Source: Candidatus Bipolaricaulota bacterium (GTDB lineage: Bacteria; Bipolaricaulota; Bipolaricaulia; UBA7950; UBA9294). From it: a stretch of DNA of 64,000 nt. The notes under the pieces were generated by a model that saw only the letters and a list, made by a program, of their open reading frames with translations, was not told the DNA's origin and did not search any database. This document shows positions 1 through 59,609 of this stretch, one piece after another. The stretch's first letter is position 1, and the number at the start of each line of letters is the position of its first letter. Made by a program: the position numbers and the translations under genes. The stretch is from the NCBI GenBank assembly GCA_026390345.1, contig JAPLGD010000068.1:24078-88077 (forward strand), read 5' to 3'.

Positions 1-582
1 CCGACGGCCGAACTCGGTCCCGATTTCGCTCTCGATGAGGGAACCACGGTTCGCCTGACCCCCGTCGTCGCCGATCCCGAGTGCGACAACCTGACCTACT
101 GCTGGACCGTGACGGCCGGCACGCTCGTCGGAGCGAACGACGCGACCCCGACGTTCACGGCCCCCATGACGAACGACTGCGCGGGGACTTCGCTGGTCAT
201 CACGCTGACAGTGACGGACCCGTGCGGGCTCCAGGCCAAGGACTCGGTCACCGTCCACGTGCGCAACGTCAACGGCGCGCCGACGGTTGAGTTGGGAGAT
301 CCGGTCTGCCTGATGGAAGGAGCGCCGCTCCATCTCATCCCCACGGTCTCCGATCCGGATGGCGACCCGCTCATCTACGCGTGGTGCGTCTCGGCGGGTA
401 AGCTTGACAGCTCCTGCGCCGGGGCACCGGTCTTCATCGCCCCCGTCGTCAAGGACTGCACGGGCATGGACGTCACCGTGACCCTCGTGGTCACCGATCC
501 TTGCGGGCTCACGGCCACGGACACGCTCGTTCTGCACATCGGCAACGTCAACACGCCGCCCACGGTGACGGCGGATCCGTAG
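1..582 (+). CDS. Partial (5' end cut by the window edge) secreted repeat protein with two ~95-aa PKD/Ig-like repeat units
   Basis: The frame is open from nt 1 to a TAG at 580-582. The internal repeat shares DPxGDxLxYxW ... TVTDPCGL ... NVNxxPTV motifs. GC3-rich codon usage. Confidence 0.6.
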   Translation, partial: PTAELGPDFALDEGTTVRLTPVVADPECDNLTYCWTVTAGTLVGANDATPTFTAPMTNDCAGTSLVITLTVTDPCGLQAKDSVTVHVRNVNGAPTVELGDPVCLMEGAPLHLIPTVSDPDGDPLIYAWCVSAGKLDSSCAGAPVFIAPVVKDCTGMDVTVTLVVTDPCGLTATDTLVLHIGNVNTPPTVTADP

Positions 583-3389: not shown

Positions 3390-3417
3390 TCGCCCGAGCG
3401 GCACATGGAACGCGGTC

Positions 3418-3663
3418 TCACTCTGTCGTGATGTCGCCGAGTCGGTCACCGACCTGCACCCGCTTCCCTTCCTCCGCCGCGATGCTCGCCAAGCGCCCCG
3501 ACGCGGGAGCCGGCACCACGAACGTCGTCTTCTCGGTCTCGACCTCGAGGAGGTCATCGCCCTCCTGCACCGCGTCGCCGACACCTCGGAGCCACCCGAC
3601 CACGACCGCGCCCTCGATCTCGCCGAGATCGGGAAGGAGAACCTCCGTCGTCGCCCGCTTCAT
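3418..3663 (-). CDS. Stand-alone lipoyl/biotinyl-attachment domain protein (81 aa) with an EVETEK lipoyl-lysine motif
   Basis: LPDLGEIEGAVVVGWL...GDDLLEVETEKTTFVVPAPASGRL is a canonical E2-type lipoyl domain. It is the first gene of the lipB-lipA-ligase operon. Confidence 0.7.
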   Translation of the reverse strand: MKRATTEVLLPDLGEIEGAVVVGWLRGVGDAVQEGDDLLEVETEKTTFVVPAPASGRLASIAAEEGKRVQVGDRLGDITTE

Positions 3664-3759
3664 GTCGCCGTCCTTTCGCGCGGAGTCTAGCCGATCCTCC
3701 TCCCACGGTCATCTTGTCATCCCGCGGCCTCGCTCCTATAGTTGCCGCGAGGTGATCGC

Positions 3760-4848
3760 ATGGGCTTCGCGTGTGGTCTGGTCGGGCTTCCCAACGCAGG
3801 GAAGTCGACGATCTTCAACGCGCTGGCCAACGCCGGCGCACGCGTCGAGTGCTACCCCTTCTGCACCATCGAAGCCAACGTCGGTTCGGCCGCCGTCCCC
3901 GACACGCGCCTCGATCGGCTCGCCACGCTCTTCCCGGAGAAGAAGAAGGTGCCGACCCACCTCGACGTCATCGACATCGCGGGCCTCGTCCAAGGGGCCA
4001 GCGAGGGAGAGGGAATGGGAAACCAGTTCCTCTCCGAGATCCGAGTCGTCGACGCGATCCTTCACATCGTTCGTTGCTTCGAAGATCCGAACGTCGCCCA
4101 CGTGACGGGATCGATCGACCCTCTGCGGGACATCGGGATCGTCGAGACGGAGCTCCTGCTCAAGGATCACGAGACCCTGAGCCGTGTCGCCGCGCGTCTC
4201 CACGGGGAGTCCCGAGGCCCCGATCGACACGCGCCCGCCCGCGAGGCGGCCTGGAACGTGCTCGTCGAACAGGTCGCCAGGGGACATCCCGTGCGATCCG
4301 TCCCCATCGCACACGAGATTGCCGACCTCGTCCGGGAAACGTCGCCTCTCACGGCAAAGCCGTGCTTGTTCGTCGCCAACGTTGACGACGGCGGAGAGAA
4401 CGAGTACTCCCGGGCCGTGTTCGCCGCCGCGCGCGAACGAGGGGCCGAGGCCGTCATGCTGCGAGGGCGCCTCGAGGCCGAGATCGGCGAGGCCTGCTCG
4501 ACGCCCGAGGAGCGCGCCGCGTACCTAGGCGAGTACGGTCTCTCCGAGACCGGACTCACCGCCCTTGTCCGCGCCGGGTACCGTCTCCTCAACCTCATCA
4601 CGTTCTTCACCGTCGAGGGCCCCGAGGTCCGCGCCTGGACCGTTCCGGTCGGAACGACCGCGCGTGCCGCGGGCGGCAAGATCCACTCCGACTTCGCCGA
4701 TCGGTTCGTCGTGGCCGAAGTGATGACCCTCGACGACCTTCTCCGCACCGGCTCCGAGAAGGTGCTCCGAGACGCAGGGAAGATCCGACGTGCAGGGCAC
4801 GACGCGCTCATCGCCGATGGGGAAGTCGTCCACTTCGTGTGCGCATGA
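3760..4848 (+). CDS. ychF: Ribosome-binding ATPase YchF (Obg family)
   Basis: MGFACGLVGLPNAGKSTIFNAL ... DIAGLV ... and a C-terminal TGS-like region. ATG at 3760 is preceded by GAGGTGA. Confidence 0.9.
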   Translation: MGFACGLVGLPNAGKSTIFNALANAGARVECYPFCTIEANVGSAAVPDTRLDRLATLFPEKKKVPTHLDVIDIAGLVQGASEGEGMGNQFLSEIRVVDAILHIVRCFEDPNVAHVTGSIDPLRDIGIVETELLLKDHETLSRVAARLHGESRGPDRHAPAREAAWNVLVEQVARGHPVRSVPIAHEIADLVRETSPLTAKPCLFVANVDDGGENEYSRAVFAAARERGAEAVMLRGRLEAEIGEACSTPEERAAYLGEYGLSETGLTALVRAGYRLLNLITFFTVEGPEVRAWTVPVGTTARAAGGKIHSDFADRFVVAEVMTLDDLLRTGSEKVLRDAGKIRRAGHDALIADGEVVHFVCA

Positions 4849-5462
4849 TTCCCACGGTGCTTGCGTACGACGACCCGCGCGTTCCCGGTCTCGTGGTCGA
4901 GGCCCTCGAGACCGGGCTCACGCTCGTCTTCCCGACGGACACGATCTACGGAATCGGGGGAAACCCGTGGGATGAGGCTGTGCTGCAACAGGTGCGCCGC
5001 CTCAAGGGGCGTGATTCCGAACAGCCGTTCACGCTTCACCTCGGCTCAGTAGACGCCGTGGAGGCATTCGCCGTCCTCACCGATCGTCAACGGGCGTCCG
5101 TCCGATCGCTCGTCCCCGGACCCTACACCCTTCTCCTCGCGGCTCGGTCCGACGCCCCAACCTCGGCCGTCCAGAACGGCACCGTTGGAATCCGAGTCCC
5201 CGACCATCCGTTCTTCGCGCGCATCATGGCGACGCTCGGCCGTCCGCTCTTCGGGACGAGCGTGAACCCGCACGGCCTTCCGCCACTCTCGGACGTGAAC
5301 GAGATCATCGACCGGTTCCCGTCGATCGACATCATCTTGACGGGGCCCATCGGCGGCCGTCCCTCCGACATCATCGACATGACCGCCGACCCGCCGCGCG
5401 CTGTTCGCGGAACCCTCCCGCCCCAGCTCGCCGCGTCGGGCGACAAGTCCGGCACGGGCTAG
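4845..5462 (+). CDS. tsaC: L-threonylcarbamoyladenylate synthase (YrdC/Sua5 domain)
   Basis: ATG at 4845 overlaps the ychF TGA (ATGA). Motifs FPTDTIYGIGGNP and RLKGR match the YrdC family. Confidence 0.8.
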   Translation: MIPTVLAYDDPRVPGLVVEALETGLTLVFPTDTIYGIGGNPWDEAVLQQVRRLKGRDSEQPFTLHLGSVDAVEAFAVLTDRQRASVRSLVPGPYTLLLAARSDAPTSAVQNGTVGIRVPDHPFFARIMATLGRPLFGTSVNPHGLPPLSDVNEIIDRFPSIDIILTGPIGGRPSDIIDMTADPPRAVRGTLPPQLAASGDKSGTG

Positions 5463-6367
5463 ACGAGGAACAACGCCGCCACTCCGGCCACCGTCAGCGC
5501 CGTTCCCACGTAGGCTCGCCATGTCGGCCGTTCGCCGAACGCAAGGGGCGACACCGGGAGGAGGAAGACGGGGGTGACGGCCATCAGGGTTGACGCCACG
5601 CCGACGGAGGCGTTGGCCAGTGCCACGAGGGAGAAGGTTACGCCGAGGAACGGCCCGAACACCGAGCCCACGCCCGTCGCAACCGCCGCCCGCCGATCGC
5701 GGAGCGCTTCGAAGGTTCTTGCCCAGCCGCGATTCCGGCCCGCGACGGCCCAGGCGGCGACCGTTGCCGCCAGGATCTGGATGAGATTCGTGGACACGGG
5801 CGGGAACCCGCCACGCATCCCTTCGACGGACAGCAGGTACCGGGTCGCCTGAGCGACGACCGCTCCAAGAGCGAACAGGAGGCCGAGCTTGAGGCTCCCC
5901 TTGGCTGTGCCGGGCTTGGCGTCGGTCCGTCGCCCCGCCAAGACGAGGAGAGTCCCGCCCACGACTCCCGCGCTCGCCACGACCTCCGTCCAGCCCAAGC
6001 GTTCGCCGAACGCGGCCCAGGCGAGGAGCGTGCTCACGACGGGGACGAGCGCCGCAAGCATCGAAGTCCGGTGGGCGCCAAGATGGAACAGGGCGCGGTA
6101 CAGAAACGCGTCGCCGATCGCGAACCCGATCACCCCGGAGAGCGACAGCCACAGCCAGCGGCTCGGCTCGGCCTCCAGCGGGATGAGTGTCCCTGTGAGG
6201 ATGAGGTGTGTAGCGACGAGGAGAACGAGGGCGAACAACAGCCGCAGCCGGTTCAGCGCGTCGGCGCCGATTCGGCGCACGGCGAGCGTGAACGCCGTGT
6301 AGCTCCCGGTCCACAGCGCCGCGGTCCCGAGCGCCGCGAGCGCACCCAAGCGGTCAGGCGAGATCAT
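5459..6367 (-). CDS. EamA/DMT-family transporter (drug/metabolite exporter), 10 predicted TM helices
   Basis: Hydrophobic protein with a duplicated EamA-like architecture. ATG at 6367 lies 3 nt after the stop of the upstream lyase gene. Confidence 0.8.
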   Translation of the reverse strand: MISPDRLGALAALGTAALWTGSYTAFTLAVRRIGADALNRLRLLFALVLLVATHLILTGTLIPLEAEPSRWLWLSLSGVIGFAIGDAFLYRALFHLGAHRTSMLAALVPVVSTLLAWAAFGERLGWTEVVASAGVVGGTLLVLAGRRTDAKPGTAKGSLKLGLLFALGAVVAQATRYLLSVEGMRGGFPPVSTNLIQILAATVAAWAVAGRNRGWARTFEALRDRRAAVATGVGSVFGPFLGVTFSLVALANASVGVASTLMAVTPVFLLPVSPLAFGERPTWRAYVGTALTVAGVAALFLV

Positions 6368-10977: not shown

Positions 10978-11118
10978 ATGATGATGGGCCGAGGTTTCCA
11001 TCTTGTGAATGAGAAGAGAGATTTCGCCGATGGAGGTCTCCATCTCGTGGACGAGAAGAGAAGGTTCGTCGATGGCGGGCTCCACCTCTTCGACGCAGAA
11101 GGGAGGGTTCACTCATGA
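10978..11118 (+). CDS. Candidate 46-aa tandem-repeat peptide MMMGRGFHLVNEKRDFADGGLHLVDEKRRFVDGGLHLFDAEGRVHS (not in the ORF track)
   Basis: The open frame begins after a TGA at 10960-62. Three consecutive ATGs, no stop for 46 codons, and a TGA that overlaps the ATG of the next gene (ATGA at 11115-11118). The frame encodes 14-aa repeats matching the 42-bp DNA repeats. There is no clear SD. Confidence 0.3.
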   Translation: MMMGRGFHLVNEKRDFADGGLHLVDEKRRFVDGGLHLFDAEGRVHS

Positions 11119-45950: not shown

Positions 45951-45980
45951 CTGCGTCTCCTCGCCTAGGGGTCGCCCTTG

Positions 45981-46053
45981 CAGGCCCGGAGGGGCTCGAA
46001 CCCCCGACCTTCCGATTTGGAGTCGGATGCTCTGCCAATTGAGCTACGGGCCT
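45981..46053 (-). tRNA. tRNA-Trp (anticodon CCA)
   Basis: Cloverleaf AGGCCCGTAGCTCAATTGGCAGAGCATCCGACTCCAAATCGGAAGGTCGGGGGTTCGAGCCCCTCCGGGCCTG. Located in the conserved rpmG-tRNATrp-secE position. Confidence 0.9.
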
Positions 46054-46125
46054 GTATCACGCCTTCGGCCCGACACGGGCCTGTATCACCTCGGCCCGCC
46101 GCGGGCCTGTGCTCGTCGGCCCGAC
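46054..46125. repeat. Degenerate duplications of the tRNA-Trp 5' leader plus first 9 nt (GTGATACAGGCCCGT x2, plus a third partial copy)
   Basis: The direct repeats gggcctgtatcac at 46047-46059 and 46075-46087, and gggcctgtgctc near 46102, lie between tRNA-Trp and rpmG. Confidence 0.5.
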
Positions 46126-48023: not shown

Positions 48024-48608
48024 TCACTCCTTGCGATCGAGGCGCCGCTCGAGCTCCGCCCGCAGCTCCTCGCGGTCGCCGATCCCCTGCACCCGCAGGA
48101 TCACGTCACGCCGCTCGCCGTTCCCAGCCCCGTTCGTCATGCTGACGATGTGGACGTTGTGCGCGTGGAGCACATCGAGGACGCTGTACAACTCCTCAGA
48201 CCCCGCACGGAGCCGAAGCTCCATCCGTGTCCCCTCGAGTCCGATGCCGAGCCCGTCTGCGAGCCCGCGCAGCACCGCACTCTGCGTGATCACGCCGACC
48301 AGCAGGTCCCCCTCCGTCACCGGCAGGACAACCAGGCGGTTCTCCAGCATGATCAGGGTCGCCTTCTCGAGCGTATCCGTCGGCGAGACCGAGAACCTCA
48401 CAGGGTGAGCGATCGCCTCTATCGGAGACTCCCAATCGACGATCCCCTTGAGCGATCCGCGGGTAACAAACCCCCGCAGCCGACCGTCCTCCGAAGTCAC
48501 CAGAAGGACCCCAAACCCGTGCTCTTCCATCAGCTTGCGAACCGTCCCGGCCGTCGTGGATGGAAGAGCGGTCACGGCATCCCGCTGCATGTGTTGCGCG
48601 ACGTTCAT
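48024..48608 (-). CDS. CBS-pair plus ACT domain protein
   Basis: Two CBS motifs (GFGVLLVTSEDGRLRGFVT and RLVVLPVTEGDLLVGVIT) and a C-terminal ACT-like fold. ATGA overlap with the upstream EF-G2-like gene. Confidence 0.8.
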   Translation of the reverse strand: MNVAQHMQRDAVTALPSTTAGTVRKLMEEHGFGVLLVTSEDGRLRGFVTRGSLKGIVDWESPIEAIAHPVRFSVSPTDTLEKATLIMLENRLVVLPVTEGDLLVGVITQSAVLRGLADGLGIGLEGTRMELRLRAGSEELYSVLDVLHAHNVHIVSMTNGAGNGERRDVILRVQGIGDREELRAELERRLDRKE

Positions 48609-50575
48609 TCCTGCTCGGCTTGGGCCTGTGCGACGACTTTCTCCTGGATGTTTCCAGGAACCTGTTGGTATCTCGCGAAATCCATCCGGAACGTAGCTCG
48701 CCCTTGGGTGCGTGACTTGAGATCGAGCGCGTAGTTCAACAGCTCGGCGAGCGGCGCCTCGGCGACAACAACCGTGGTCTTCCCCGCCGGCTCCATCCCA
48801 AGGATGCGCCCGCGGCGCCCGTTCATGTCGCTGATGATGTCCCCCATGTGATCCTCAGGCACGCGCACCCTCACGGACATGATCGGCTCGAGGAGGCACG
48901 GCTCCGCGTTGTCGAACGCCTCACGGAACGCGCCCCTCGCAGCGAGCTTGAACGCAAGCTCGGAGGAGTCCACCGGGTGGAAGCTTCCGTCGAACACCGC
49001 GACGAGGACCTCCGTGACCGGGAACTTGGCCAGGCTGCCCTGCTCCAGCGCCTCGAGGATGCCCTTCTCGACGCCGGGCACGTACTGGTTGGGAATCGAC
49101 GCGCCCTTGATCTCGTCGACGAACTTGAACCCGCCCTCGCCCTTGTACGGCTCGATGCGCAGCCACACCTCGCCGAACTGGCCACGGCCGCCGGTCTGCT
49201 TCTTGTGACGGTACTTGGCCTCCGCCTTCTTCCGAATCGTCTCCTTGTACGGGATCCGCGGCTGTCGGGTTTCGAGCGAGACGTTGTATCGGTTTTTGAG
49301 CCTCTCGATGAACACGGACACGTGCACGTCTCCCATCCCGTGCAGCGTGAGCTCCTTCGTGACCGGATCGCGTTCCACGACGATCGTGGCCTTGGTCGCC
49401 GCGATCTCCTTCAGCGCCGCGCCCATCTTGTCGACGTCCGCCTGGCTCTTCGGAACGATCGTCCGCGAGAAGACCGGCCTCGGGAACTCCAGCATCGGGA
49501 ACGCCTCTCCGCCTTGGCTGACCCCGAGCGTCGCTCCAAGGGCGATGTGCTCCGCCTTGGCGATCGCGACGATCTCGCCGGGTCCTGCTTGGGGAACGCG
49601 CTTCTGCTTCGTGCCTTCGAGAGCGTAAAGGTCACGCACGTCGACCTTCGCTCCGGACACGACGTCCACGAGACCCTTCCCCTCCTGAATCGTGCCCTCG
49701 AGGACCCGCACGAAGGAGAGACGTCCGAGGTACGGGTCGCTCGCCAGGTTGAACGCCACGACGCGACACGGTGCGCCCGCATCACCGGCTCGCGGCGCAA
49801 CGTAGCCCACGAACGCCTTCAGCAGCTGATCGAGTCCCTTCCCCTCCGTCACCGAAGAGCAGAGGACTGGGACGATGGCTCCGGCCGCGATCCCCTTCAC
49901 GAGCGCCCGGGCGACCTCGCTTTCGCTGATCGGTGCCTCATCGAGGAACTTCATCATCAATTCGTCGTCCGCCGTCGCGACCTCTTCAAGAAGAGCGCCA
50001 CGCGCCATCTCGACTTCGTCGGTGATGTCGGCCGGGATCTCCTTCTTTGCCTTGTCGGCGAAGTCCACGAGTCGGTTCGAGACGAGGTCGACCATGCCCG
50101 TGAACGCTCCGCCGGCGCGGATTGGCATCTGGACCGGAACCAGCTTCCCTTCGAAGTGGTTACGCAGGTCAGCCACGGCCTTGTCGAAGTTCGCGTTCTC
50201 CTTGTCCATCAGGTTGACGAGAACGATCGTCGGGCGCTTCGCGCCCCCGGAGATCTCCCACGCCCGCTCCGTGACGACCTCCACGGCCTTCTCCGCGTTC
50301 ACCACGAGGACCGTCAGATCCGCAACGGGAATCCCTTTGTACATCTCCTCGATGAACTCATCGCCGCCCGGCGTGTCGAGGAGAGTAATCGAGACACCGT
50401 CCGCCTGGAACGCGCCGAAGCCCATGTCGAGCGTGTGCCCACGTTCCTTCTCCTCCTGCGACGCGTCCAGCGTGATCTGCTCTTTGGTGCCCGCGCGCGC
50501 TAGGAGCGCGGCGGTAAGGGCCGTCTTCCCAGTACCGGAGTGCCCCACCAAGCAGATGGTCCGAGCCTGCCCCAT
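48605..50575 (-). CDS. Elongation factor G paralog (EF-G2/FusA2-like) with non-canonical G motifs
   Basis: Full five-domain EF-G architecture. G1 is GHSGTGKT, G3 is DTPGGDEF (the switch II His is replaced by Gly), G4 is NLMD. ATG at 50575 is preceded by AAGGGGG. Confidence 0.85.
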   Translation of the reverse strand: MGQARTICLVGHSGTGKTALTAALLARAGTKEQITLDASQEEKERGHTLDMGFGAFQADGVSITLLDTPGGDEFIEEMYKGIPVADLTVLVVNAEKAVEVVTERAWEISGGAKRPTIVLVNLMDKENANFDKAVADLRNHFEGKLVPVQMPIRAGGAFTGMVDLVSNRLVDFADKAKKEIPADITDEVEMARGALLEEVATADDELMMKFLDEAPISESEVARALVKGIAAGAIVPVLCSSVTEGKGLDQLLKAFVGYVAPRAGDAGAPCRVVAFNLASDPYLGRLSFVRVLEGTIQEGKGLVDVVSGAKVDVRDLYALEGTKQKRVPQAGPGEIVAIAKAEHIALGATLGVSQGGEAFPMLEFPRPVFSRTIVPKSQADVDKMGAALKEIAATKATIVVERDPVTKELTLHGMGDVHVSVFIERLKNRYNVSLETRQPRIPYKETIRKKAEAKYRHKKQTGGRGQFGEVWLRIEPYKGEGGFKFVDEIKGASIPNQYVPGVEKGILEALEQGSLAKFPVTEVLVAVFDGSFHPVDSSELAFKLAARGAFREAFDNAEPCLLEPIMSVRVRVPEDHMGDIISDMNGRRGRILGMEPAGKTTVVVAEAPLAELLNYALDLKSRTQGRATFRMDFARYQQVPGNIQEKVVAQAQAEQE

Positions 50576-50657
50576 GTCGATGTCCCCCTTGGGTGAACGA
50601 TAAGTGGTCTTGCGGAGTATATCGACCCCTCGCGGAGGGAGCAAGAATCGCCGCTAC

Positions 50658-50850
50658 GGTTGCGGTTCCGCCCTCCGTACACGGTTGCGGCTCCGCCCTC
50701 CGTACACGGTTGCGGCTCCGCCCTCCGTGCACGCTTGCGGCCCCGCCCTCCGTGCACGCTTGCCGCCCCGCCCTCTCATCAAGCTTGCGGCTCGGCCACG
50801 GCACGCCGTCCGCTTGCCGCTCCGTCCGCGTTTGCGGCCCCGCCCGGCGC
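50658..50850. repeat. Array of 7-8 tandem copies of a GC-rich 25-bp repeat (consensus GCTTGCGGCYCCGCCCTCCGTRCAC) in a divergent intergenic region
   Basis: Units at 50658-82, 50683-707, 50708-32, 50733-57 and 50758-82, plus longer and shorter degenerate units out to about 50850. No spacers of unique sequence, so this is not a CRISPR array. Confidence 0.85.
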
Positions 50851-50917
50851 CGCGTATCCTCTTCGTCCTTCCTCTGCGTCGAAGCCGGGGAAATACCACG
50901 GAACGCGGGAGGTTCAC

Positions 50918-52531
50918 ATGGCGACGCAGCTCTTGCTCGGAGATGAGGCGCTCGCTCAGGGTGCGATCGACGCCGGACTTTCCGCAGCGTACGCGTACCC
51001 CGGCACTCCGTCCACGGAGATCACCGAGCACATCCTTCGCAGCCCGGAGGCCCGAGCCGGCGAGATCGTCTGCCGCTGGGCCGCAAACGAGAAGACCGCG
51101 CTCGAGGCGGCGCTTGGCGCAAGCTACGCCGGGAAGCGCGCGATGGCGAGCATGAAGCACGTCGGGTTGAACGTCGCCGCCGATCCGTTCGTGAACGCTG
51201 CGATCTCCGGCGCCCACGGCGGACTCCTCGTCAACGTCGCCGACGACCCGTCCATGCACTCGTCCCAGAACGAGCAGGACTCGCGGCTCTATGCCGAGCT
51301 CGCGCTCGTTCCGTGCTTCGAGCCCTCCGACCAGCAGGAGGCCTACGCCGTTCCGGCGCGCGCCTTCGAGCTGTCGGAGACTTACCGCGTCCCGGTTCTC
51401 GTCCGCCTGACGACGCGGCTCGCCCACTCCCGCGCCACGGTCGAGGTCGGCGGACAACGTCCGCAGAACCCGCTCTCGCGACCCGAGCAGCCCGAGCGAT
51501 TCATCCTCCTCCCCGCGATCGCGAAGCGAAGCTACGAGCGCCTCGTCGGTCATCAGCCCGACTTCGTTCGCGAAAGCGAGGCGAGTCCGTTCAATCGCCT
51601 GTCGCAGGACGGCGACCGCGCGCTCGGAATCGTGGCGTGCGGCATCGCCTACAATTACCTCCTCGAGGTGACAGACGGCGCGCCGCGGCACCCGGTCCTC
51701 AAGGTCGGCCAGTATCCGCTTCCTGCGCGTGACGTCGAGTGGCTCGTCGAGCACTGCGGCAGGATCCTCATCCTCGAAGAGGGATACCCCTACGTAGAAG
51801 GCAAGCTTCGGGGCCTCCCGCCGCGCTCGGCGCCGGCAATCCACGGCCGCCTCACGGGCGACGTCCCGCGGACCGGCGAGTTGTCACCCGACATTGTCGC
51901 CGCGGCGCTCGGACTCAGTGCGCTCGCCCGCCGAGCGGCGTCTTCGGTCCCGGCACCGCGTCCGCCTGCCTTCTGTCCCGGGTGCCCGCACGCCGACACG
52001 TGCAAGGTGCTTGCCGAGGTCCTCGTGTCCCGCCGCGACTCTGCCCGCGTCTTCTCCGACATTGGGTGCTACACGCTTGGCGCGCTCCCGCCGCACGGCG
52101 TCATCGACACGTGCGTCGAGATGGGTGCGTCGATCACCATGGCCCACGGCGCGTCCGAGGCCGGGCTTCGCCCGGCCGTCGCCCTGATCGGCGACTCGAC
52201 GTTCACCCACTCGGGCATGACGGGGCTCCTCGACTGCGTCAACGCCAACGCCGACGTCACGGTCATCATCGTCGACAACCTCACCGTGGCGATGACCGGC
52301 GGCCAACGCTCGGCGGCGGAGAACCGGCTCGTCTCCATCTGCCGCGGGCTCGGCGTGGACGAAGCCCACATCCGCGTCATCGAACCCCATCCACGCAACC
52401 ACAAGCAGAACGTCGCCGTTCTCGACCAGGAGATTCAGTACCCGGGAACCTCCGTCATCATCGCGCAGCGCGAATGTATCCAGACGGCCAAACGGTCCGC
52501 GCGCCGGGGAGCGCGGGGAGGCCAGGAATGA
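50918..52531 (+). CDS. iorA: Indolepyruvate/2-oxoacid:ferredoxin oxidoreductase alpha subunit (TPP-binding)
   Basis: N-terminal POR domain, and a TPP domain with FCPGCPH. ATG at 50918 is preceded by GGGAGG. The upstream part of the tracked ORF runs through the repeat array. Confidence 0.85.
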   Translation: MATQLLLGDEALAQGAIDAGLSAAYAYPGTPSTEITEHILRSPEARAGEIVCRWAANEKTALEAALGASYAGKRAMASMKHVGLNVAADPFVNAAISGAHGGLLVNVADDPSMHSSQNEQDSRLYAELALVPCFEPSDQQEAYAVPARAFELSETYRVPVLVRLTTRLAHSRATVEVGGQRPQNPLSRPEQPERFILLPAIAKRSYERLVGHQPDFVRESEASPFNRLSQDGDRALGIVACGIAYNYLLEVTDGAPRHPVLKVGQYPLPARDVEWLVEHCGRILILEEGYPYVEGKLRGLPPRSAPAIHGRLTGDVPRTGELSPDIVAAALGLSALARRAASSVPAPRPPAFCPGCPHADTCKVLAEVLVSRRDSARVFSDIGCYTLGALPPHGVIDTCVEMGASITMAHGASEAGLRPAVALIGDSTFTHSGMTGLLDCVNANADVTVIIVDNLTVAMTGGQRSAAENRLVSICRGLGVDEAHIRVIEPHPRNHKQNVAVLDQEIQYPGTSVIIAQRECIQTAKRSARRGARGGQE

Positions 52532-53109
52532 GGCGCGACATCATCCTCGCCGGCGTCGGCGGCCAGGGCCTGTTGGCTCTCGCGGCCGTGCTCGGTCAGG
52601 CCGCCCGCGGGCTTGGCCTTCACCTCAAGCAGGCCGAAGTCCACGGCATGGCCCAACGCGGCGGCGTCGTGCAAAGCCACGTCCGCTTCGGCGACCGCCC
52701 CGTCCACTCTGACCTTGTCCGCGAAGGAACGGCAGACCTCGTTCTCGCGCTCGAGCCGATGGAGGCGCTCCGCTACCTTCCGTACCTGAAGCTCGACGGC
52801 GCCCTCGTCTCCGATACGCGGCCGGTGCGCAACATCCCGGAGTACCCGGACGTCGACCGCATTCTCGCCGAGCTGCGGGTGATCACGCCCCATCGCCTCG
52901 TCGACGCCGCGGCCCTCGCCGAGCAAGCCGGATCGCCGCAGGCGAGCAACCTGGTTGTCCTCGGCGCGGGGCTTCCGTTCCTCGGCCTCCCCGTGGAGGC
53001 TCTCGAGGACGGGATCCGCGCCGCCTTCGCGGGCAAGGCGGAGGCCGTCGTCGCCGCGAACCTTCGCGGATTCAAGCTCGGCGTCGAGTGGACGCAGGTG
53101 CCATCGTAG
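52528..53109 (+). CDS. iorB: Indolepyruvate oxidoreductase beta subunit (POR gamma-type)
   Basis: DIILAGVGGQG start. ATGA overlap with iorA. Confidence 0.85.
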   Translation: MRRDIILAGVGGQGLLALAAVLGQAARGLGLHLKQAEVHGMAQRGGVVQSHVRFGDRPVHSDLVREGTADLVLALEPMEALRYLPYLKLDGALVSDTRPVRNIPEYPDVDRILAELRVITPHRLVDAAALAEQAGSPQASNLVVLGAGLPFLGLPVEALEDGIRAAFAGKAEAVVAANLRGFKLGVEWTQVPS

Positions 53110-53197
53110 AGCCCCTCGCACCTCCCACACGCCCTCGGCTTGCCGGCTGGGAATCGTCCCGGTAGGCTATCCGCGTTCAGGATTCCGGGAGGTCAAG

Positions 53198-54094
53198 ATG
53201 CGAAAGCTCGTTGGGGTCCCTGTTGTCCTCGTCCTTCTCCTCATCGTCGGTTCGTGCTTCGTCGCGTCGGATTCGACGGGCGTCGTGCGCATCGGCGTCT
53301 TCACCGACATCCACGTCCACGACACCAACTCGCCCAACGAACACAAGGTGATGGCGAACTACGAGCCGCGGCTCACGGCGTTCGTCGAGGCGATGACGGC
53401 GTGGCCGGCCGACGCCGTCGTCTCGCTCGGCGACCTCGTGAACGGCGTCTTCGTCATGGGCGCCGATCTCGGCGACTCCGCGCGCATCCCTGCGCTCCTC
53501 GACCGTGCCGTCGGGATCCTCCACGGCTACTCGGGGCCGATCAGCTACGTCTTGGGGAACCACGACGTGTACAACCTGACCAAAGCGCAGTTCCTCGCAG
53601 CCACCGGATCGCCCGCCGCGTACCGGAGCTTCGACCTCGGCGCCTACCACGTCGCGATCCTCGACGCCCAGTTCAACAAGGCAGGCCAGGACTACGGGAA
53701 CGTGAGTTGGATGGTCCAAGGGACGATCCCCACCGCGGAGCTCGAGTGGCTGCGCGCCGACCTCGCCGCAACCCAGAAGCCGACAATCGTCTGCGTCCAC
53801 CAGCCGCTTGACCTGGCGTTCGAGCTTCTCGCCGGCGGACCGTCGGTCTCGAACGCCCCCGAGGTGCGCGCCGTTCTTGCCGCCTCCGGCCGCGTCATCA
53901 CCGTCTTCCAAGGACACACGCACGACTCGGCCCACACCGTCATCGACGGGATTCACTACGTCACCTTCGCCGGCATGGTCGATGCCGATGTGCCGACGCC
54001 CGCGTCGTGGGCCGCGGTGACCCTGGACCCGACCGCGCGGACGATCCACATCGAGGGTGTCGGACTCCAAGAGACCCTCGACATCGTCTACTAA
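53198..54094 (+). CDS. Secreted calcineurin-like metallophosphoesterase
   Basis: Signal peptide (VGSC lipobox-like). GDLVNG, GNHD and GHTH motifs. ATG after GGGAGG. Confidence 0.8.
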   Translation: MRKLVGVPVVLVLLLIVGSCFVASDSTGVVRIGVFTDIHVHDTNSPNEHKVMANYEPRLTAFVEAMTAWPADAVVSLGDLVNGVFVMGADLGDSARIPALLDRAVGILHGYSGPISYVLGNHDVYNLTKAQFLAATGSPAAYRSFDLGAYHVAILDAQFNKAGQDYGNVSWMVQGTIPTAELEWLRADLAATQKPTIVCVHQPLDLAFELLAGGPSVSNAPEVRAVLAASGRVITVFQGHTHDSAHTVIDGIHYVTFAGMVDADVPTPASWAAVTLDPTARTIHIEGVGLQETLDIVY

Positions 54095-54124
54095 CTAGCA
54101 GGAAGAAGGGAAGGAGGACCGCCG

Positions 54125-55096
54125 GTGAGTCGGCTGTCGAAGCTTGGCATGGCATGGGCGGCGGCAGTTCTCGTAGTGCTCCTCGCCGTCCTCGAGGGAG
54201 GCGCGGACCCCGCCGCGGATGCCGCGAGCAGCGTCAGCGCCAGTGACGCTGCCCCCGTTCGCTTTGGCCTCTTCACCGATCTGCACGCCGATGACCGAGA
54301 CTCGCCGGCCGAGCGAAAGCGGATGACCCACACGGCCGAGCGCCTCGGCGCCTTCTGCGCGGCGATGAATGCCGAGGCCGTCGACTTCACGATCGAGCTC
54401 GGCGACTTCGTCAATGGCTGGCTCGTCCTGGGTGCCGATCCCGGGGACCCAGGCAGGATTCCCGAGATCCTCGCGTGGGCAGACTCGCTCTACGCCGCGT
54501 TCACGGGACCTCGCTACCACGTCCTCGGGAACCACGACCTCTTCAATCTCGACAAGGTGGCGATCCGCGAGATCCTGGGGCTCGAGCGGACCTACTACAG
54601 CTTCGACGTCCGGGGCGTTCACTTCGTCGTTCTCGACGCGGAGTTTGCCGAAAACGGAAGCGACCTCGCGCGGACGTACACCGGCGTCGCCGGGTTCATC
54701 CCGCCCGCGGAGCTGGTTTGGCTGAGCGAGGACCTCGCCGGGTCCGACCGTCCGACGATCGTCTTCGTCCATCAGATGCTCGACGAGTACATCGAGGAGT
54801 GGGGCCGTTCCCTCATTGCCAACCAGCGCGAGGTGCAGGCCGTTCTCTCCGCGGACCCCGAGGTTGTCGCCGTGCTCCAGGGACACGCCCACGCGTTCCG
54901 CCACAGCGAGGTCGGCGGCGTTCACTACCTCACGTTTGCAGCGCTCGTCGATCAGGAGACGCCGCCCTCGTGGGCCCTCGTGACCGTCGATCCTGCGGCG
55001 CGAACCGTCATGATCGATGGCACGGGAGAGCAGCCGAACCTTGGGTTCTCGTACGAGATCTCGCGCCCCGGCGCGAGCAAGGGAGGAACCGAATGA
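54125..55096 (+). CDS. Secreted calcineurin-like metallophosphoesterase (paralog of the previous gene)
   Basis: GDFVNG, GNHD and GHAH motifs. GTG after AAGGAGG. Confidence 0.8.
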   Translation: MSRLSKLGMAWAAAVLVVLLAVLEGGADPAADAASSVSASDAAPVRFGLFTDLHADDRDSPAERKRMTHTAERLGAFCAAMNAEAVDFTIELGDFVNGWLVLGADPGDPGRIPEILAWADSLYAAFTGPRYHVLGNHDLFNLDKVAIREILGLERTYYSFDVRGVHFVVLDAEFAENGSDLARTYTGVAGFIPPAELVWLSEDLAGSDRPTIVFVHQMLDEYIEEWGRSLIANQREVQAVLSADPEVVAVLQGHAHAFRHSEVGGVHYLTFAALVDQETPPSWALVTVDPAARTVMIDGTGEQPNLGFSYEISRPGASKGGTE

Positions 55097-55386
55097 TCGT
55101 CGACTTCAGCATCGCTCCGATCGGTCGCGGCGAGAGCCTAAGCCGCTACGTCGCTGAGGCGTACCGGATCATCGAGGCGTCCGGCGTCCGGCACGAGTTC
55201 CACGCGATGGGCACGAACCTCGAAGGCGACTGGGGCGAGGTCATGACCGTCGTCAATGCCTGTCGCTTGCGCTTGCTCGAGACGTGCGGGCGCGTGTCGA
55301 TCTCGCTCCGCATCGACGACCGCAAAGGGGCATCCGACCGCCTCGGCCACAAGGTCGCGTCGGCACAGGAGAAAGCGGGGCTCTAG
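55093..55386 (+). CDS. MTH1187/YkoF-family protein (thiamine-binding-like, 97 aa)
   Basis: MIVDFSIAPIG...MGTNLEG. ATGA overlap with the upstream gene. Preceded by GGGAGG. Confidence 0.75.
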   Translation: MIVDFSIAPIGRGESLSRYVAEAYRIIEASGVRHEFHAMGTNLEGDWGEVMTVVNACRLRLLETCGRVSISLRIDDRKGASDRLGHKVASAQEKAGL

Positions 55387-56996
55387 TCCGCCGCCGGGTG
55401 AATGACGAGCACGTCGCCGGCGATGTTCGCGGCGTGATCGCCGATCCGCTCTAGGTTATGGAGGATCTCCACGAACAGGATCCCTGCCTCCGGATCGCAC
55501 TCGTCTGACTCCAGGCGCTCGACGTGGTGGCTCTTGTACCGCGTTTCAAGCTCGTCCAAGTGCTTCTCCAAATCCAGGGCCCGCTTGGCTTCGCCGATGT
55601 TCTCTGTGTCAAGCGCGGCAAGCGATAGCTGGTAGAGCTCGATCGCCCGGTCGAACATGTCGCCAAGCTCGCCGGCCGCCACCGCGGAGAGGCTGCGGCC
55701 CTTCGCCATCAGCTTTTCGGCACGCACGGTGATGTTGACGGCCTGGTCGCCCACCCGTTCGACATCGGCGACGATGTGGCGGAGGACGTGGAGGCGGCGC
55801 TCGTCCTTCCCGCTGAGCGCACTGCCGTCAATTCGGTCGAGGAACTCGTCGACCGAGTCCTTGAGCCCGTCGACCGCCTCCTCCACCTCGCCAACCGACG
55901 CGATCTCCGTGGAATCGCGCTTCAGGATCCCTTCCTTGCACGCGCGGATCATCGCCGCCGTCATCCCACCCATCCGCAGGAGCTCGCGCTGTGCCTGGCG
56001 CACGGCGAACGCAGGCGTCGCCAGGAATTGCTCCCCGAGGAACTGCGCTCGCCCCCCGGTGCCCTCCTCGCGCCCCCGCACGAGCATCCGAGCAACCCAA
56101 ACCAGCCCGCCGACGCAAGGAATAAGGGCGAGCGTTACGGCCACGTTAAAGATCGAGTGGGCGTTCGCGATCTGTCGCGGCAGAGAAGACGACGTCATCT
56201 GCACCAATCGCGTGAACCACGGCAGAAAGGGCAGGAACACGCCAACTCCGACCACGTTGACGACCAGCTGGGTCACCGCGAGTCGCCGCGACGAAAGCGA
56301 CGTCCCGATCGATGCGATCTGGGCCGTGACCGTCGTACCGATGTTCGCACCGAGGACGATGGCGATGGCGGCGGGCAGGGAAATCAGCCCCGAGCTGCCC
56401 AGTCCGATGACGAGCGCCGTCATCGCCGCCGAGCTGTGGATGGCCGCCGTCACCCCAGCGCCGACAAGGACGCCGAGAAGCACGTTGTCGCCGCACGCCT
56501 GGAGGACACGCAAGATCGTGGGGCTCTGCGCGAGCCCTACAAGTCCTCCGGTGAAGATGCCCATCCCGAGGAAGACGAGGCCGAGTCCGAGGACGATGCG
56601 GCCGACGTCGCCCACCTTCCTCCCGCGGAACGTCTCCGCCAGGATGTAGCCGACGGCGAGGACCGGCATGTAGTAGATGCCGATCTTGAACGCGATGATC
56701 TGCGCGGTCAGCGTCGTCCCGATCTCCGCCCCGAGCATGACGCCGATTCCCTGCGCCAGGGTGAGGATGCCGGCGTTGATCATCCCGATCAGAAGCACCA
56801 TCGTCATCGTGCTCGACTGAAGGGTCGCCGAGGTGACCATGCCGACGAGGACGCCGCGGTAGGCCTTGCCGGTCAGCCGCTCGACGATCACTCGCATGCG
56901 GTCGCCAACCGCACGTTTGAGCGCGTCGCTCATGATCCTTAGTCCGAACAGGAAGACCGCCAGACCGCCGGCAGCGCTGAAGAGAACCCCGACCAT
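55383..56996 (-). CDS. Na/Pi-cotransporter family protein with C-terminal PhoU-like domains
   Basis: Two NptA repeats (SATLQSSTMTMVLL and SSAAMTALVIG) and a cytoplasmic PhoU-like C-terminus. The ATG at 56996 is uncertain, since longer starts are possible. Confidence 0.8.
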   Translation of the reverse strand: MVGVLFSAAGGLAVFLFGLRIMSDALKRAVGDRMRVIVERLTGKAYRGVLVGMVTSATLQSSTMTMVLLIGMINAGILTLAQGIGVMLGAEIGTTLTAQIIAFKIGIYYMPVLAVGYILAETFRGRKVGDVGRIVLGLGLVFLGMGIFTGGLVGLAQSPTILRVLQACGDNVLLGVLVGAGVTAAIHSSAAMTALVIGLGSSGLISLPAAIAIVLGANIGTTVTAQIASIGTSLSSRRLAVTQLVVNVVGVGVFLPFLPWFTRLVQMTSSSLPRQIANAHSIFNVAVTLALIPCVGGLVWVARMLVRGREEGTGGRAQFLGEQFLATPAFAVRQAQRELLRMGGMTAAMIRACKEGILKRDSTEIASVGEVEEAVDGLKDSVDEFLDRIDGSALSGKDERRLHVLRHIVADVERVGDQAVNITVRAEKLMAKGRSLSAVAAGELGDMFDRAIELYQLSLAALDTENIGEAKRALDLEKHLDELETRYKSHHVERLESDECDPEAGILFVEILHNLERIGDHAANIAGDVLVIHPAAD

Positions 56997-57109
56997 TGCA
57001 CCCCCCGGGGCTGTGTTTCCCGGAAGCGAAGTATATACTCCGCCCGGCATGTTACAAGCCAGATGCCCGTTCGTTACTTGCGTATCCCGTCCAAAACCCG
57101 TAGATTGAG

Positions 57110-58147
57110 ATGACAATGACCGACTGGCTCCGGCGAATGCCGAAGATTGATCTTCACGTCCACCTGGACGGCTCCCTCAGGCTCGAGACGGTCCTGAAGT
57201 TGGCCCGTGCGCTCCCGCCCGAGCAAGCGTTTCCCGACTCGGTCAACCTGAAGAGTGCCGTCATCCCTGGGGCTCGCGGCTCGCTCGAGGAGTACCTCGT
57301 GGCGTTCGACTACACCGTCCCCCTGCTCCAGACATCCGCCGCCCTCGAGCGATCGGCGTACGAGCTGTGCGAGGATGCCGCGAGCGAGAACGTCATCTAC
57401 ATCGAGATCCGCTTCGCGCCGCTCCTCCACACCCGCGCGGATCTGAAGCCGCGAGACGTCGTTGCCGCCGTGCTCGCTGGAATGCATCGCGCCGAGGCCG
57501 ACTTCGGGATCGTCGCCGGGCTAATCCTCACGGCCCTGAAGCAGAACTCGACCGAGCAGTCGATCGAAACCGTCCAGCTGGCCGCGCAGTTCCGCCGCGA
57601 CGGCGTCGTCGGCGTCGACCTCGCTGGGCCGGAGCACCAGAACCCGCCGGTCAAGCACCGCAAGGCGATCGAGTTCGCACACGACGCGGGCATCCACGTC
57701 ACCATCCACGCCGGCGAAGGGTGCTGCCCGGAGCAGATCAAGGAAGCCCTCGACCTGGGAGCGGAGCGGATCGGCCACGGGGTCTACCTTTTCCAGGCGC
57801 CGCGAACCGAGAAGCGGGTCGCCGAGCTGGGCATCCCGCTCGAGATGTGCCCCACGAGCAACCTCCAGGTCGCCGGGTTCATGAAGAACTACCGCGACCA
57901 TCCGATTAAGCGCTACCTCGACGCCGGCATCGTCGCGACGGTCAACACCGACAACCGGCTGATGTCGCAGACCGATATGACGAGCGAGTTCGAGCATCTC
58001 GTGAAGGCGTTCCGCCTCACGAGGAAGAACGTCCAGCGACTGGTCTCAAACAGCGTCCGGGCCGCGTTCGCGTCCGACGACCGAAAACGCGAGCTGCAGG
58101 AGCGCGTCGACGCATTCTTCGCCCCCGCGAGGAAGCAGAAGCCCTGA
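57110..58147 (+). CDS. add: Adenosine deaminase
   Basis: KIDLHVHLDGS, HAGE and NTDN motifs. Confidence 0.9.
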   Translation: MTMTDWLRRMPKIDLHVHLDGSLRLETVLKLARALPPEQAFPDSVNLKSAVIPGARGSLEEYLVAFDYTVPLLQTSAALERSAYELCEDAASENVIYIEIRFAPLLHTRADLKPRDVVAAVLAGMHRAEADFGIVAGLILTALKQNSTEQSIETVQLAAQFRRDGVVGVDLAGPEHQNPPVKHRKAIEFAHDAGIHVTIHAGEGCCPEQIKEALDLGAERIGHGVYLFQAPRTEKRVAELGIPLEMCPTSNLQVAGFMKNYRDHPIKRYLDAGIVATVNTDNRLMSQTDMTSEFEHLVKAFRLTRKNVQRLVSNSVRAAFASDDRKRELQERVDAFFAPARKQKP

Positions 58148-58163
58148 GAAGCGCGATCGTACG

Positions 58164-58490
58164 TCAGCCGAAGAGGCCTCCCTCTTCGATTTCCTGCCAC
58201 CCAAAGCGCCGCAAGTCGATGCGCCCGTTCGCGTCGAAGGCGACGCCCTCTGCCTTCAAACACTCGATCTGCTCGCCGCCGATGCTCGACTCCCCCTTCG
58301 CGTTGACGACCCGATGCCACGGGACGTCGGGCCGCGGGGCTCCGCGGCCGAGGGCCGCCATCGCGTAGCCGACCTGCCGCGCCGCCTTCGGCATGCCCAC
58401 GAGCTGCGCGATCTGTCCGTACGTCGCAACCTGCCCGCGCGGGATGCGCTTCGTCACTTCGTAGATCCGCTCGTACAGCCCATCGCCCAT
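58164..58490 (-). CDS. Alkyltransferase-like (ATL) protein: an MGMT DNA-binding domain with Trp in place of the active-site Cys
   Basis: The motif PWHRVVNAKG appears in place of PCHRV. 108 aa. Confidence 0.8.
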   Translation of the reverse strand: MGDGLYERIYEVTKRIPRGQVATYGQIAQLVGMPKAARQVGYAMAALGRGAPRPDVPWHRVVNAKGESSIGGEQIECLKAEGVAFDANGRIDLRRFGWQEIEEGGLFG

Positions 58491-58584
58491 ACCCTCACTC
58501 CTTCCTTCTAGCCTGCCACGCTACGACAGCGCCAGGGCGCCGACAAGAAAAGGATCGCCGCCCGCCGTGTCCCCGCCGTCTCGC

Positions 58585-58805
58585 CTCACGGCACGCCGTC
58601 CACTTGCCGCTCCGTTCGCGCTTGCCGCCCCGCCCACGGCACGCCGTCCACTTGCCGCTCCGTTCGCGTTTGCCGCCCGGCACCCCGTCCGTTTGCCGCT
58701 CGGCCCTCCGTGCACGCTTGCCGCTCGGCCCACCGTCCACGCTTGCCGCCCCGCCCGCCGTCCACGTTTGCGGTAGCGCCCTCCGTCCGCGTTTGCGCCC
58801 TTGCC
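58585..58805. repeat. Second array of about 9 tandem copies of the same 25-bp GC-rich repeat family, including a ~49-bp higher-order duplication
   Basis: cacggcacgccgtccacttgccgctccgttcgcg is repeated at 58587 and 58635. Later units such as gcttgccgctcggccctccgtgcac are 22/25 identical to units of the 50658 array, in the same orientation. Confidence 0.85.
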
Positions 58806-58835
58806 AGACCGCGAGCGGGCCTGTACGGTGATCGC

Positions 58836-59609
58836 ATGGGCCTCCTCAAGCGCCACCGCCGCGAGCGGATCCGACGCCGTCCGTTTCCTCCCGCCTGGCA
58901 GGCGATCCTCGAGCGCACGTTCCCCCGCCACCTGCGCCTCTCCCCCGAGGATCGAAAGGAACTCGAGGGGCACATCCAGGTCTTCCTCGCCGAGAAGCGA
59001 TTTGAGGGCGCCGCAGGGCTTGCGATCACCGACGAAATCCGCGTGACCATCGCCGCGCAGGCCTGCTTCCTTCTCCTGCACCGAGACACGGACTTCTACC
59101 CGGGTCTCTACTCGATCATCGTCTACCCCGAGGAGTACGTGGCCAGCTACCATCTCCGGGACGAGAGAGGATTCGTCGAGGAAGGACCGCAAGTCCGGCT
59201 CGGAGAGGCGAGCGGCCGGGGCGCGGTGGTCTTGTCGTGGGACGGCGCGCTGCGCGGCGCGTCGGACGTTGAGGACTGCCACAACGTCGTCTTCCACGAG
59301 TTCGCCCACCAACTCGACGCCGAGAGCGGTAGCTTCGACGGTGCACCGCTGCTCCCCGAGCGGTCGATGTACCTCGCCTGGGCCCGCACCCTGAGCGAGG
59401 AGTGGCACGCGCTTCGAGCCCGCGCGAGCCGCCATGAGCCCACCGACCTCGACCCGTACGGGGCCACGAACCCGGCCGAGTTCTTCGCCGTCGTCACCGA
59501 GTGCTTTTTCCAGCGTCCGCACCAACTCCGGGAAACCCACCCGAAGCTCTACGAAGAGCTCGAGCGTTTCTATCGCCAGGATCCGACGTCCTCGATGCCG
59601 TCGACGTGA
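58836..59609 (+). CDS. MtfA-like zinc-dependent peptidase (M90 family)
   Basis: HEFAHQLD zinc motif. The internal ATG at 58836 follows the repeat array. Confidence 0.75.
   Translation: MGLLKRHRRERIRRRPFPPAWQAILERTFPRHLRLSPEDRKELEGHIQVFLAEKRFEGAAGLAITDEIRVTIAAQACFLLLHRDTDFYPGLYSIIVYPEEYVASYHLRDERGFVEEGPQVRLGEASGRGAVVLSWDGALRGASDVEDCHNVVFHEFAHQLDAESGSFDGAPLLPERSMYLAWARTLSEEWHALRARASRHEPTDLDPYGATNPAEFFAVVTECFFQRPHQLRETHPKLYEELERFYRQDPTSSMPST

Follow-up and report, generated by a model that had tools for sequence, protein, structure and literature searches.

In Bipolaricaulota, the tandem array that separates an alkyltransferase-like (ATL) gene from an mtfA-like gene belongs to a genus-level family of minisatellites that are non-coding, modular in build, and hypervariable. 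The array lies in a 64-kb window (the whole stretch of DNA that was analyzed, positions 1-64000), which contains two arrays of this family and no others; we refer to them as array 1 and array 2, the latter being the one beside the ATL gene, and to the family as the TTGC family. Dispersed bacterial minisatellites, such as MIRU and STRR, are a known kind of element. What appears not to have been described before is the TTGC family itself, along with the modular build of its variable-length units and its presence in Bipolaricaulota; we found no account in the full-text literature of repeats in Bipolaricaulota or of this family.

Array 2 is made up of units that run head to tail and each open with TTGCSGC (Table 1). 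Its left end is a partial unit and its right end a degenerate one, and the "about nine units" counted in a first-pass annotation of this DNA is thus a fair description. TTGCSSY starts fall at 58604, 58622, 58652, 58670, 58693, 58718, 58743, 58768, and 58793, giving unit spacings of 18, 30, 18, 23, 25, 25, 25, and 25 nt. Tandem Repeats Finder reports the array as a block at 58575-58678 with a period of 48 (2.1 copies, score 180) and a block at 58658-58796 with a period of 25 (5.6 copies, score 143). On the + strand, C makes up 50% of the array, G 26%, and A 5%. The motif TTGCSGCNCSGCCC, with at most one mismatch allowed, has 15 matches in the window where 1.3 are expected, 13 of them within the two arrays, and a two-unit pattern has five matches against 0 expected; a search of the window for single cores gave none outside the arrays beyond chance. 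In its head-to-tail units and its density above chance, array 2 has the makeup of a generic bacterial minisatellite, or VNTR.

Table 1. Genes, arrays, double units, and promoter-like sites in the window
Feature	Position	Strand	Remarks
EF-G-like GTPase gene	48605..50575	-	Left of array 1
Promoter-like site, EF-G-like gene	50616..50644	-	TTGCTC-17-TATACT; faces away from array 1
Array 1	50656..50853	+	Same family as array 2; units of 25 (x5), 29, and 18 nt, then last unit
48-bp double unit in array 1	50797..50844	+	44/48 versus 58587-58634
Promoter-like site, iorA	50832..50860	+	TTGCGG-17-TATCCT; the −35-like hexamer is that of the last repeat unit
iorA-like gene (indolepyruvate/pyruvate:ferredoxin oxidoreductase alpha-like)	50918..52531	+	Right of array 1; POR_N, TPP_enzyme_C
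ATL (alkyltransferase-like) gene	58164..58490	-	MGMT-type DNA_binding_1 domain
Promoter-like site, ATL gene	58518..58546	-	TTGTCG-17-TAGCGT; between array 2 and ATL, faces outward
Array 2, TTGCSGC...CCGTNCRCGY minisatellite	58575..58800	+	8 full units and 2 partial
48-bp double unit, copy 1	58587..58634	+	Tail of 30-nt unit, 18-nt unit, head of next unit
48-bp double unit, copy 2	58635..58682	+	45/48 identical to copy 1
Promoter-like site, mtfA	58801..58829	+	TTGCCA-17-TACGGT; directly after last degenerate unit
mtfA-like Peptidase_M90 gene	58836..59609	+	

The higher-order structure of the array was described in the first-pass annotation as an exact duplication of a double unit of 48 to 49 bp. 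The duplication is present, but it is not exact, with unbroken identity between the copies confined to the first 34 nt. A similar correction applies to a unit that had been quoted as GCTTGCCGCTCGGCCCTCCGTGCAC, which does not occur verbatim, while the real unit at 58691 (GTTTGCC...GTGCAC) does match the array 1 unit at 50708 at 22 of 25 positions. The placement of the array between divergent genes, with ATL on the minus strand and a Peptidase_M90/MtfA gene on the plus strand, holds as proposed, and both identities agree with our own. In the ATL protein, PWHRV replaces the catalytic PCHRV, which marks it as a true ATL.

Array 2 does belong with the array at 50.6 kb, as had been suggested, since the two have a common unit motif, a common orientation, and the 48-bp double unit, a copy of which ends array 1, whose last unit runs into the promoter-like site of iorA. 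Both are direct, with the TTGC strand on the + strand, and the longest exact stretch common to them is 22 nt. The possibility had been raised that the pair mediates inversion or deletion of the 8-kb segment between them. As direct repeats, the arrays would through simple exchange delete or duplicate this segment rather than invert it, and we saw no sign of its rearrangement, with the contig L052 (~80% nucleotide identity) collinear between both arrays.

The units of the family differ in length in a manner that reveals how they are built. Among the matches listed, 361 units could be measured, the most frequent lengths being 25 nt (n = 91), 18 nt (n = 50), 24 nt (n = 45), and 22 nt (n = 27), with units of 17, 16, 30, 23, and 31 nt also common. 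CCGT stands at a constant distance from the TTGC that follows it, whereas 1 to 15 nt separate TTGCSGC from the next CCGT, so that the unit is most naturally divided into a 17-bp core, CCGTnCrCGyTTGCsGC, and a variable linker after it. A 15-bp short form of the core also occurs. Linkers are 1 to 15 bp long, typically nCsGCCCd, CCGCACw, or a single base, which yields units of 16 to 31 bp.

Conservation within the unit is specific to position. The consensus of the 25-mers is TTGCSGCNCSGCCCDCCGTNCRCGY, and across 63 distinct 25-mers among the matches listed, positions 11-13 and 21 are invariant, positions 14, 16-19, and 23-24 are nearly so, and positions 5, 8, 10, 15, 20, 22, and 25 are free. When the distinct units are joined in a minimum spanning tree, 110 changes result, mostly at positions 8, 15, 20, and 25, with zero at 11-13, 17, 18, and 21. 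That the same positions are free in every array, beyond what homogenization alone leaves, argues for position-by-position constraint on the units. Folding of the repeats gave no signal: neither window array contains an inverted repeat, folding of either strand is no better than that of shuffled controls (z = +1.0 and +0.6), and a scan of 50400-59000 on both strands against Rfam 15 returned zero matches at an E value of 1 or less. Two further regularities were considered and rejected, namely a GCSG..CSGC mini-palindrome or hairpin, for which positions 5 and 10 covary weakly (26/15/14/8) and are not among the significant pairs, and a regular 5-nt interval between free positions (5, 10, 15, 20, 25), which is broken by positions 8 and 22.

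To delimit the family, one genome per bacterial or archaeal species was scanned with the pattern TTGCSGC-N8-CCGTNCRCGNTTGCSGC. Eleven stretches were found, nine of them from assemblies of Candidatus Bipolaricaulis/Bipolaricaulota (some labelled Thermotogae) and the remaining two being isolated single matches in Burkholderiales without arrays. Metagenomes contributed at least ~40 further arrays, on contigs of 64-69% GC, the largest having at least 22 to 25 units, and a scan of viral contigs gave one isolated match and zero arrays. After near-identical contigs were grouped, at least ~15 distinct genomic sites stood apart, two of them in the window and the rest from four species-level genome assemblies and many metagenome contigs; the compared contigs carry labels such as L001 and L004. 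The ATL, MtfA, EF-G-like, and adenosine deaminase proteins encoded on the contigs from the one-genome-per-species scan are 84-94% identical to those of the window, which places the window in the same genus-level group; an exact-protein look-up of MtfA found no match.

Comparison with relatives shows arrays that stay in place while their contents turn over. L052 carries both arrays, 8 kb apart and in the same orientation, and matches the window collinearly at 72-88% nucleotide identity; orthologues of array 2 are also present in L004, L014, L098, and L114, and an orthologue of array 1 in L008. Beside array 1, on the iorA side, nucleotide identity to relatives is 82-84%. The spacer between ATL and mtfA, measured start to start with the mtfA ATG counted, is 345 bp in the window and 556 (L114), 583 (L098), 619 (L004), and ~755 bp (L052) in the orthologues. 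Units proximal to mtfA pair one to one between the window and L004, with differences almost confined to the free positions, and in general the promoter-proximal units are the best conserved between orthologues. On the ATL side, half of the array has been reshaped: the window acquired the 48-bp duplication, and L004 and L052 took up a different, hairpin repeat by insertion.

This hairpin belongs to a second repeat family in the relatives, REP-like and of the form GAACGTCG-stem-CAAG-stem-CGACGCTAC, which on the other strand reads as GTAG and then a palindrome. The stems covary (GCAC/GTGC, GGAG/CTCC, TAC/GTA). Carriers are L004, L052, L009, L011, L012, L027, L055, L066, and L093, with examples at 2957, 3155, 11244, and 11395 on the minus strand of L052 and at ~4600-5150 of L055. 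Clusters of the hairpin hold both orientations; within the TTGC arrays of L004 and L052 it occurs in one orientation, inserted between CC and GT. The window has no intact copy, and positions 50631-50658 may be a decayed one.

The recent slippage or unequal crossover read from the higher-order repeats by the first-pass annotation is supported by near-identical contigs that differ by whole units, besides the internal duplication. Length polymorphism between relatives, on which that proposal depended, is seen as whole-unit indels of 17-75 nt in five pairs of contigs that are at least 98.8% identical (0.1-1.2% substitutions), all of them short-read metagenome assemblies in which assembly collapse could be part of the cause. 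L098 and L114 differ by seven substitutions in 2600 nt and one 27-nt unit indel, L035 and L125 by two substitutions in 934 nt and indels of 43 and 18 nt, L125 and L068 by one substitution in 912 nt and indels of 75 and 35 nt, L045 and L115 by five substitutions in 1723 nt and an indel of 23 nt, and L048 and L123 by 10 substitutions in 849 nt and an indel of 17 nt. The family evolves as arrays gain and lose single units and pairs of units, in all likelihood by slipped-strand mispairing or unequal exchange, and the duplicated 30 + 18 = 48-bp double unit of array 2 is one such pair. The arrays persist at orthologous spacers while unit content changes.

The same repetition has practical consequences. 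The exact strain of the window is present in three sequencing runs (L001-L003; SRR20698646-8), and the contigs from these runs, on which the ATL and adenosine deaminase genes are identical to those of the window, break off precisely within the 34-nt exact repeat of array 2. An exact look-up of ATL returned only contigs of 1.7-1.9 kb, all stopping in the array. The arrays are thus systematic assembly breakpoints for Bipolaricaulis genomes and explain why short-read assemblies break at particular spacers. For Bipolaricaulota, which are uncultured, they also offer ready-made VNTR markers for strain tracking.

We classified the genomic context of the arrays with the TTGC strand taken as +. Arrays occupy divergent spacers at three sites (ATL/MtfA, EF-G-like/IorA, and a third), co-oriented tandem spacers at two (one of them upstream of ffh), anti-oriented tandem spacers (five sites, with EF-P, Asp23, DinB, sugar epimerase, and nitroreductase neighbours), and convergent spacers (ThiS/thioesterase and S8 peptidase/ABC permease). 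One contig, L100, has four in-frame 24-nt units (3297-3392) within a minus-strand ORF (2947-5619), where they lie in the MutS2 linker between the MutS_V and Smr domains and encode AASVNGGR three times and AASVDGGR once. The position of the arrays has no consistent relation to transcription, and the existence of convergent, antisense, and coding-region arrays means that a promoter role cannot be why the family exists. At two other sites, the thioesterase ORF of L045 (607-1191) and the nitroreductase ORF of L073 (2372-3400) run on into arrays, their C-terminal tails past the Pfam domain being repeat-encoded; the G-rich strand is poor in stop codons. A supposed tRNA 3' end abutting a related array was rejected, as ARAGORN found no tRNA and the sequence is the 3' end of a nitroreductase ORF.

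At their edges, the arrays meet promoter-like sequences. The pattern TTGNNN-16..18-TANNNT has 19 matches in the window on both strands, and four of these lie at the four array edges, facing outward (Table 1). At the iorA site, the hexamers and the 17-nt spacing are kept in L008 and L052 while the sequence of the spacer diverges, and the site is followed by GGGAGG and then by the ATG of the iorA-like gene at 50918. The hexamers of the mtfA site are likewise kept in four orthologues with a varying spacer. Outside the window, the array upstream of ffh has TTGCGG-17-TACGCT (L009, L011, L055), and L133 and L076 have TTGCCG-18-TATGAT at the 3' end of the array. Among the matches listed, a TTGCSG-type hexamer at the array 3' end stands 17-18 nt before TAnnnT at four of the five sites with a co-oriented downstream gene, and the background rate of TTGSS[SA] hexamers in the family contigs is 0.9%. 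A consensus promoter tool called no promoter at a threshold of 9/12, as TTGCGG matches only three of the six positions of TTGACA; a terminator scan found nothing, and the interior units have no −10 partner at usable spacing.

The mtfA site ends close to its gene, TACGGT stopping 6 nt ahead of the ATG at 58836, and this geometry suggests that the mtfA mRNA may be leaderless; alternatively, GGTGATC could be a Shine-Dalgarno site. A −10-like hexamer that ends 6 nt before the start codon was observed both here (TACGGT-GATCGC-ATG, 58824-58838) and downstream of the array in L035/L125 (GATAAT-AACGCC-ATG), which suggests that this lineage may use leaderless mRNAs. The array edges hint at the promoter architecture of the phylum, TTGNNN-17-TAnnnT, with a possibly leaderless mtfA.

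The explanation that we favor, and regard as probable though far from certain, is that array 2 is a minisatellite that propagates itself and whose units mimic the portion of a promoter formed by the upstream region and the −35, with the terminal hexamer used as a −35 element and the array lying between back-to-back promoters. Given the position-specific constraint on the core, some sequence-specific factor would have to recognize it, and the TTGCSG part would correspond to a −35-type hexamer. The 3' terminal hexamer of this type, whether that of the last unit or one directly after it, would most likely serve as the −35 of the downstream gene, and array 2 would fill the space between the outward-facing core promoters P_ATL and P_mtfA. 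From these sequence features we infer use of the array-end hexamer as a −35, binding of the units by a protein, which may be RNA polymerase sigma region 4 or another factor, and an effect of array length on the expression of neighbouring genes. Against such a promoter or binding role, the units are spaced 16-31 bp apart without helical phasing, which argues against cooperative protein arrays.

It is possible, though we consider it the less probable course, that the arrays are a selfish or neutral minisatellite, its core kept by its own copying or insertion process and any −35 use being opportunistic co-option. A recombinase or a transposase could drive this process, perhaps the one responsible for the mobility of the REP-like hairpins, which in L004 and L052 were inserted at the same point of the unit in one orientation. 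The presence of arrays in every kind of spacer without consistent orientation relative to genes, the units in the MutS2 linker, the thioesterase and nitroreductase ORFs that run into arrays, and the lack of single units outside the arrays in the window are all as expected of such an element. However, the analysis identified no candidate enzyme, transposase or otherwise, both arrays of the window are kept at orthologous spacers across ~80% nucleotide identity, it is the promoter-proximal units that are best conserved, and the terminal hexamer occupies the −35 position at most eligible sites. Retention at orthologous spacers and the −35 geometry thus favor promoter mimicry, and the coding-region and convergent cases favor selfish propagation; the two readings are not mutually exclusive.

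A fully functional role for the arrays seems unlikely to us. Here the 17-bp core would be the site of a dedicated Bipolaricaulis protein, and the arrays would act as portable promoter modules (upstream site plus −35) that tune divergent promoters through their copy number, or else as replication-oriented polar signals on which the REP-like hairpin element also lands. If the constrained core is protein-bound, the arrays would provide a simple handle for finding a new DNA-binding factor. On a separate proposal, the core would be the site of one transcription factor, reiterated as an operator, and the genes adjoining the arrays would be its regulon. Conservation that is position-specific, like that of a protein-binding motif, and the location of the window arrays between divergent promoter-like sites fit this proposal, but the neighbours are functionally unrelated (ATL, MtfA, EF-G-like, IorA, Ffh, EF-P, DinB, sugar epimerase, ThiS, and others), arrays also occur between convergent genes and within a coding region, the spacing of units varies, and the largest arrays have at least 22 to 25 units, so that we hold a reiterated operator to be very improbable. 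We know of no operator consensus that matches the core. Readings of it as a sigma-54 site (GG-N10-GC), an ECF-sigma site, or a DnaA box were set aside by eye against consensus sequences, each conflicting in spacing or at the free positions.

The orientation of the arrays raises the question of a polar element of replication or recombination, akin to Chi or to FtsK-orienting sequences, with the G-rich strand on the leading strand. Arrays on one contig are always co-oriented (2/2 in the window, 4/4 in L052, 2/2 in L130, and 2/2 in L093), and GC skew taken in array orientation with the arrays masked is negative at ~11 of 14 sites among the matches listed, so that there the C-rich strand of the array coincides with the C-rich strand of the genome. 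Yet three sites have clearly positive skew, the bias reaches about p = 0.06 (two-sided), the skew was taken from contigs of only 3-15 kb, none of the known Chi or KOPS words occurs as such, and single-stranded mutational processes would yield the same bias without function. We therefore find little to recommend a polar element, and the link between array orientation and GC skew is suggestive only. In the window itself, GC skew is negative throughout on the + strand, as a polar element would also have it, and the four tRNA genes all lie on the minus strand.

The DnaA box is TTATCCACA, or TTGTCCACA in GC-rich genomes. We give next to no credence to a cluster of DnaA boxes, to an RNA locus, whether structured or CRISPR-like, or to a repeat that codes for protein: CCGTCCACG resembles the high-GC box at six of nine positions and long spurious ORFs cross array 2, but the box positions that DnaA recognizes are free here (N = A 21, C 19, G 15, T 8; R = A 38, G 25), the equivalents of box positions 5 and 7 being free and positions 1-2 and 9 differing from the box, the window shows neither a switch in skew nor the context of an origin, units follow one another without spacers, Rfam gave no match and folding no signal, and units of 25, 18, 30, and 23 nt break any reading frame.

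Among known repeat systems, the MIRU-VNTR loci of Mycobacterium tuberculosis resemble the TTGC family in being lineage-specific head-to-tail arrays at many intergenic sites of a GC-rich genome and in varying by whole units between close relatives. MIRUs are 40-100 bp long, mostly intra-operon and gene-oriented, and have small ORFs that overlap the stop and start codons of their neighbours. TTGC arrays have neither this unit size nor the intra-operon placement and gene orientation; their units are 16-31 bp, modular, with a fixed core and a variable linker, and found in both orientations at divergent, convergent, and tandem sites. Cyanobacterial STRRs are similar as clade-specific, non-coding tandem arrays of strand-asymmetric sequence. 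STRR units are homogeneous 7-nt heptamers, whereas TTGC units are three to four times longer, of mixed lengths, and composed of conserved and free positions.

The REP and BIME elements of enterobacteria and pseudomonads, like the TTGC family, form abundant intergenic mosaic clusters that expand in tandem. In contrast to these, with their GTAG and imperfect palindrome in alternating copies, the units of the window arrays are non-palindromic, all direct, and without GTAG plus hairpin, and the material examined yielded no RAYT transposase. Pneumococcal BOX elements (boxA-boxB(n)-boxC) contain a copy-variable module and can affect the expression of neighbouring genes. Both they and the TTGC arrays are modular intergenic repeats with a variable copy number of an internal module, but BOX elements have defined terminal modules and stable folds, and TTGC arrays have neither. 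The array ends also have a parallel in the hybrid promoters formed by outward-facing −35 hexamers of insertion sequences such as IS1, IS2, and IS10, in which repeated, mobile or expandable DNA lends a −35 to a resident −10 at 17 nt; unlike at those insertion sequences, there is here no transposase, terminal inverted repeat, or target duplication, and the donor would be the end unit of a minisatellite. The arrays also differ from CRISPR loci in that their units abut, the linkers of 1-15 nt being repeated motifs themselves.

Two other short tandem repeats were observed in the window. At 46046-46125, a 26-nt unit occurs ~3 times immediately upstream of the tRNA-Trp gene (45980-46053, minus strand), each copy including the first bases of the tRNA, AGGCCCGT, together with the preceding sequence GGTGATAC; this looks like a tandem duplication of the tRNA-Trp 5' end and its promoter-proximal region. 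At 10991-11088, a 42-nt unit is repeated 2.3 times at 80% identity just upstream of an ATG at ~11116, and its copies end in GATG.
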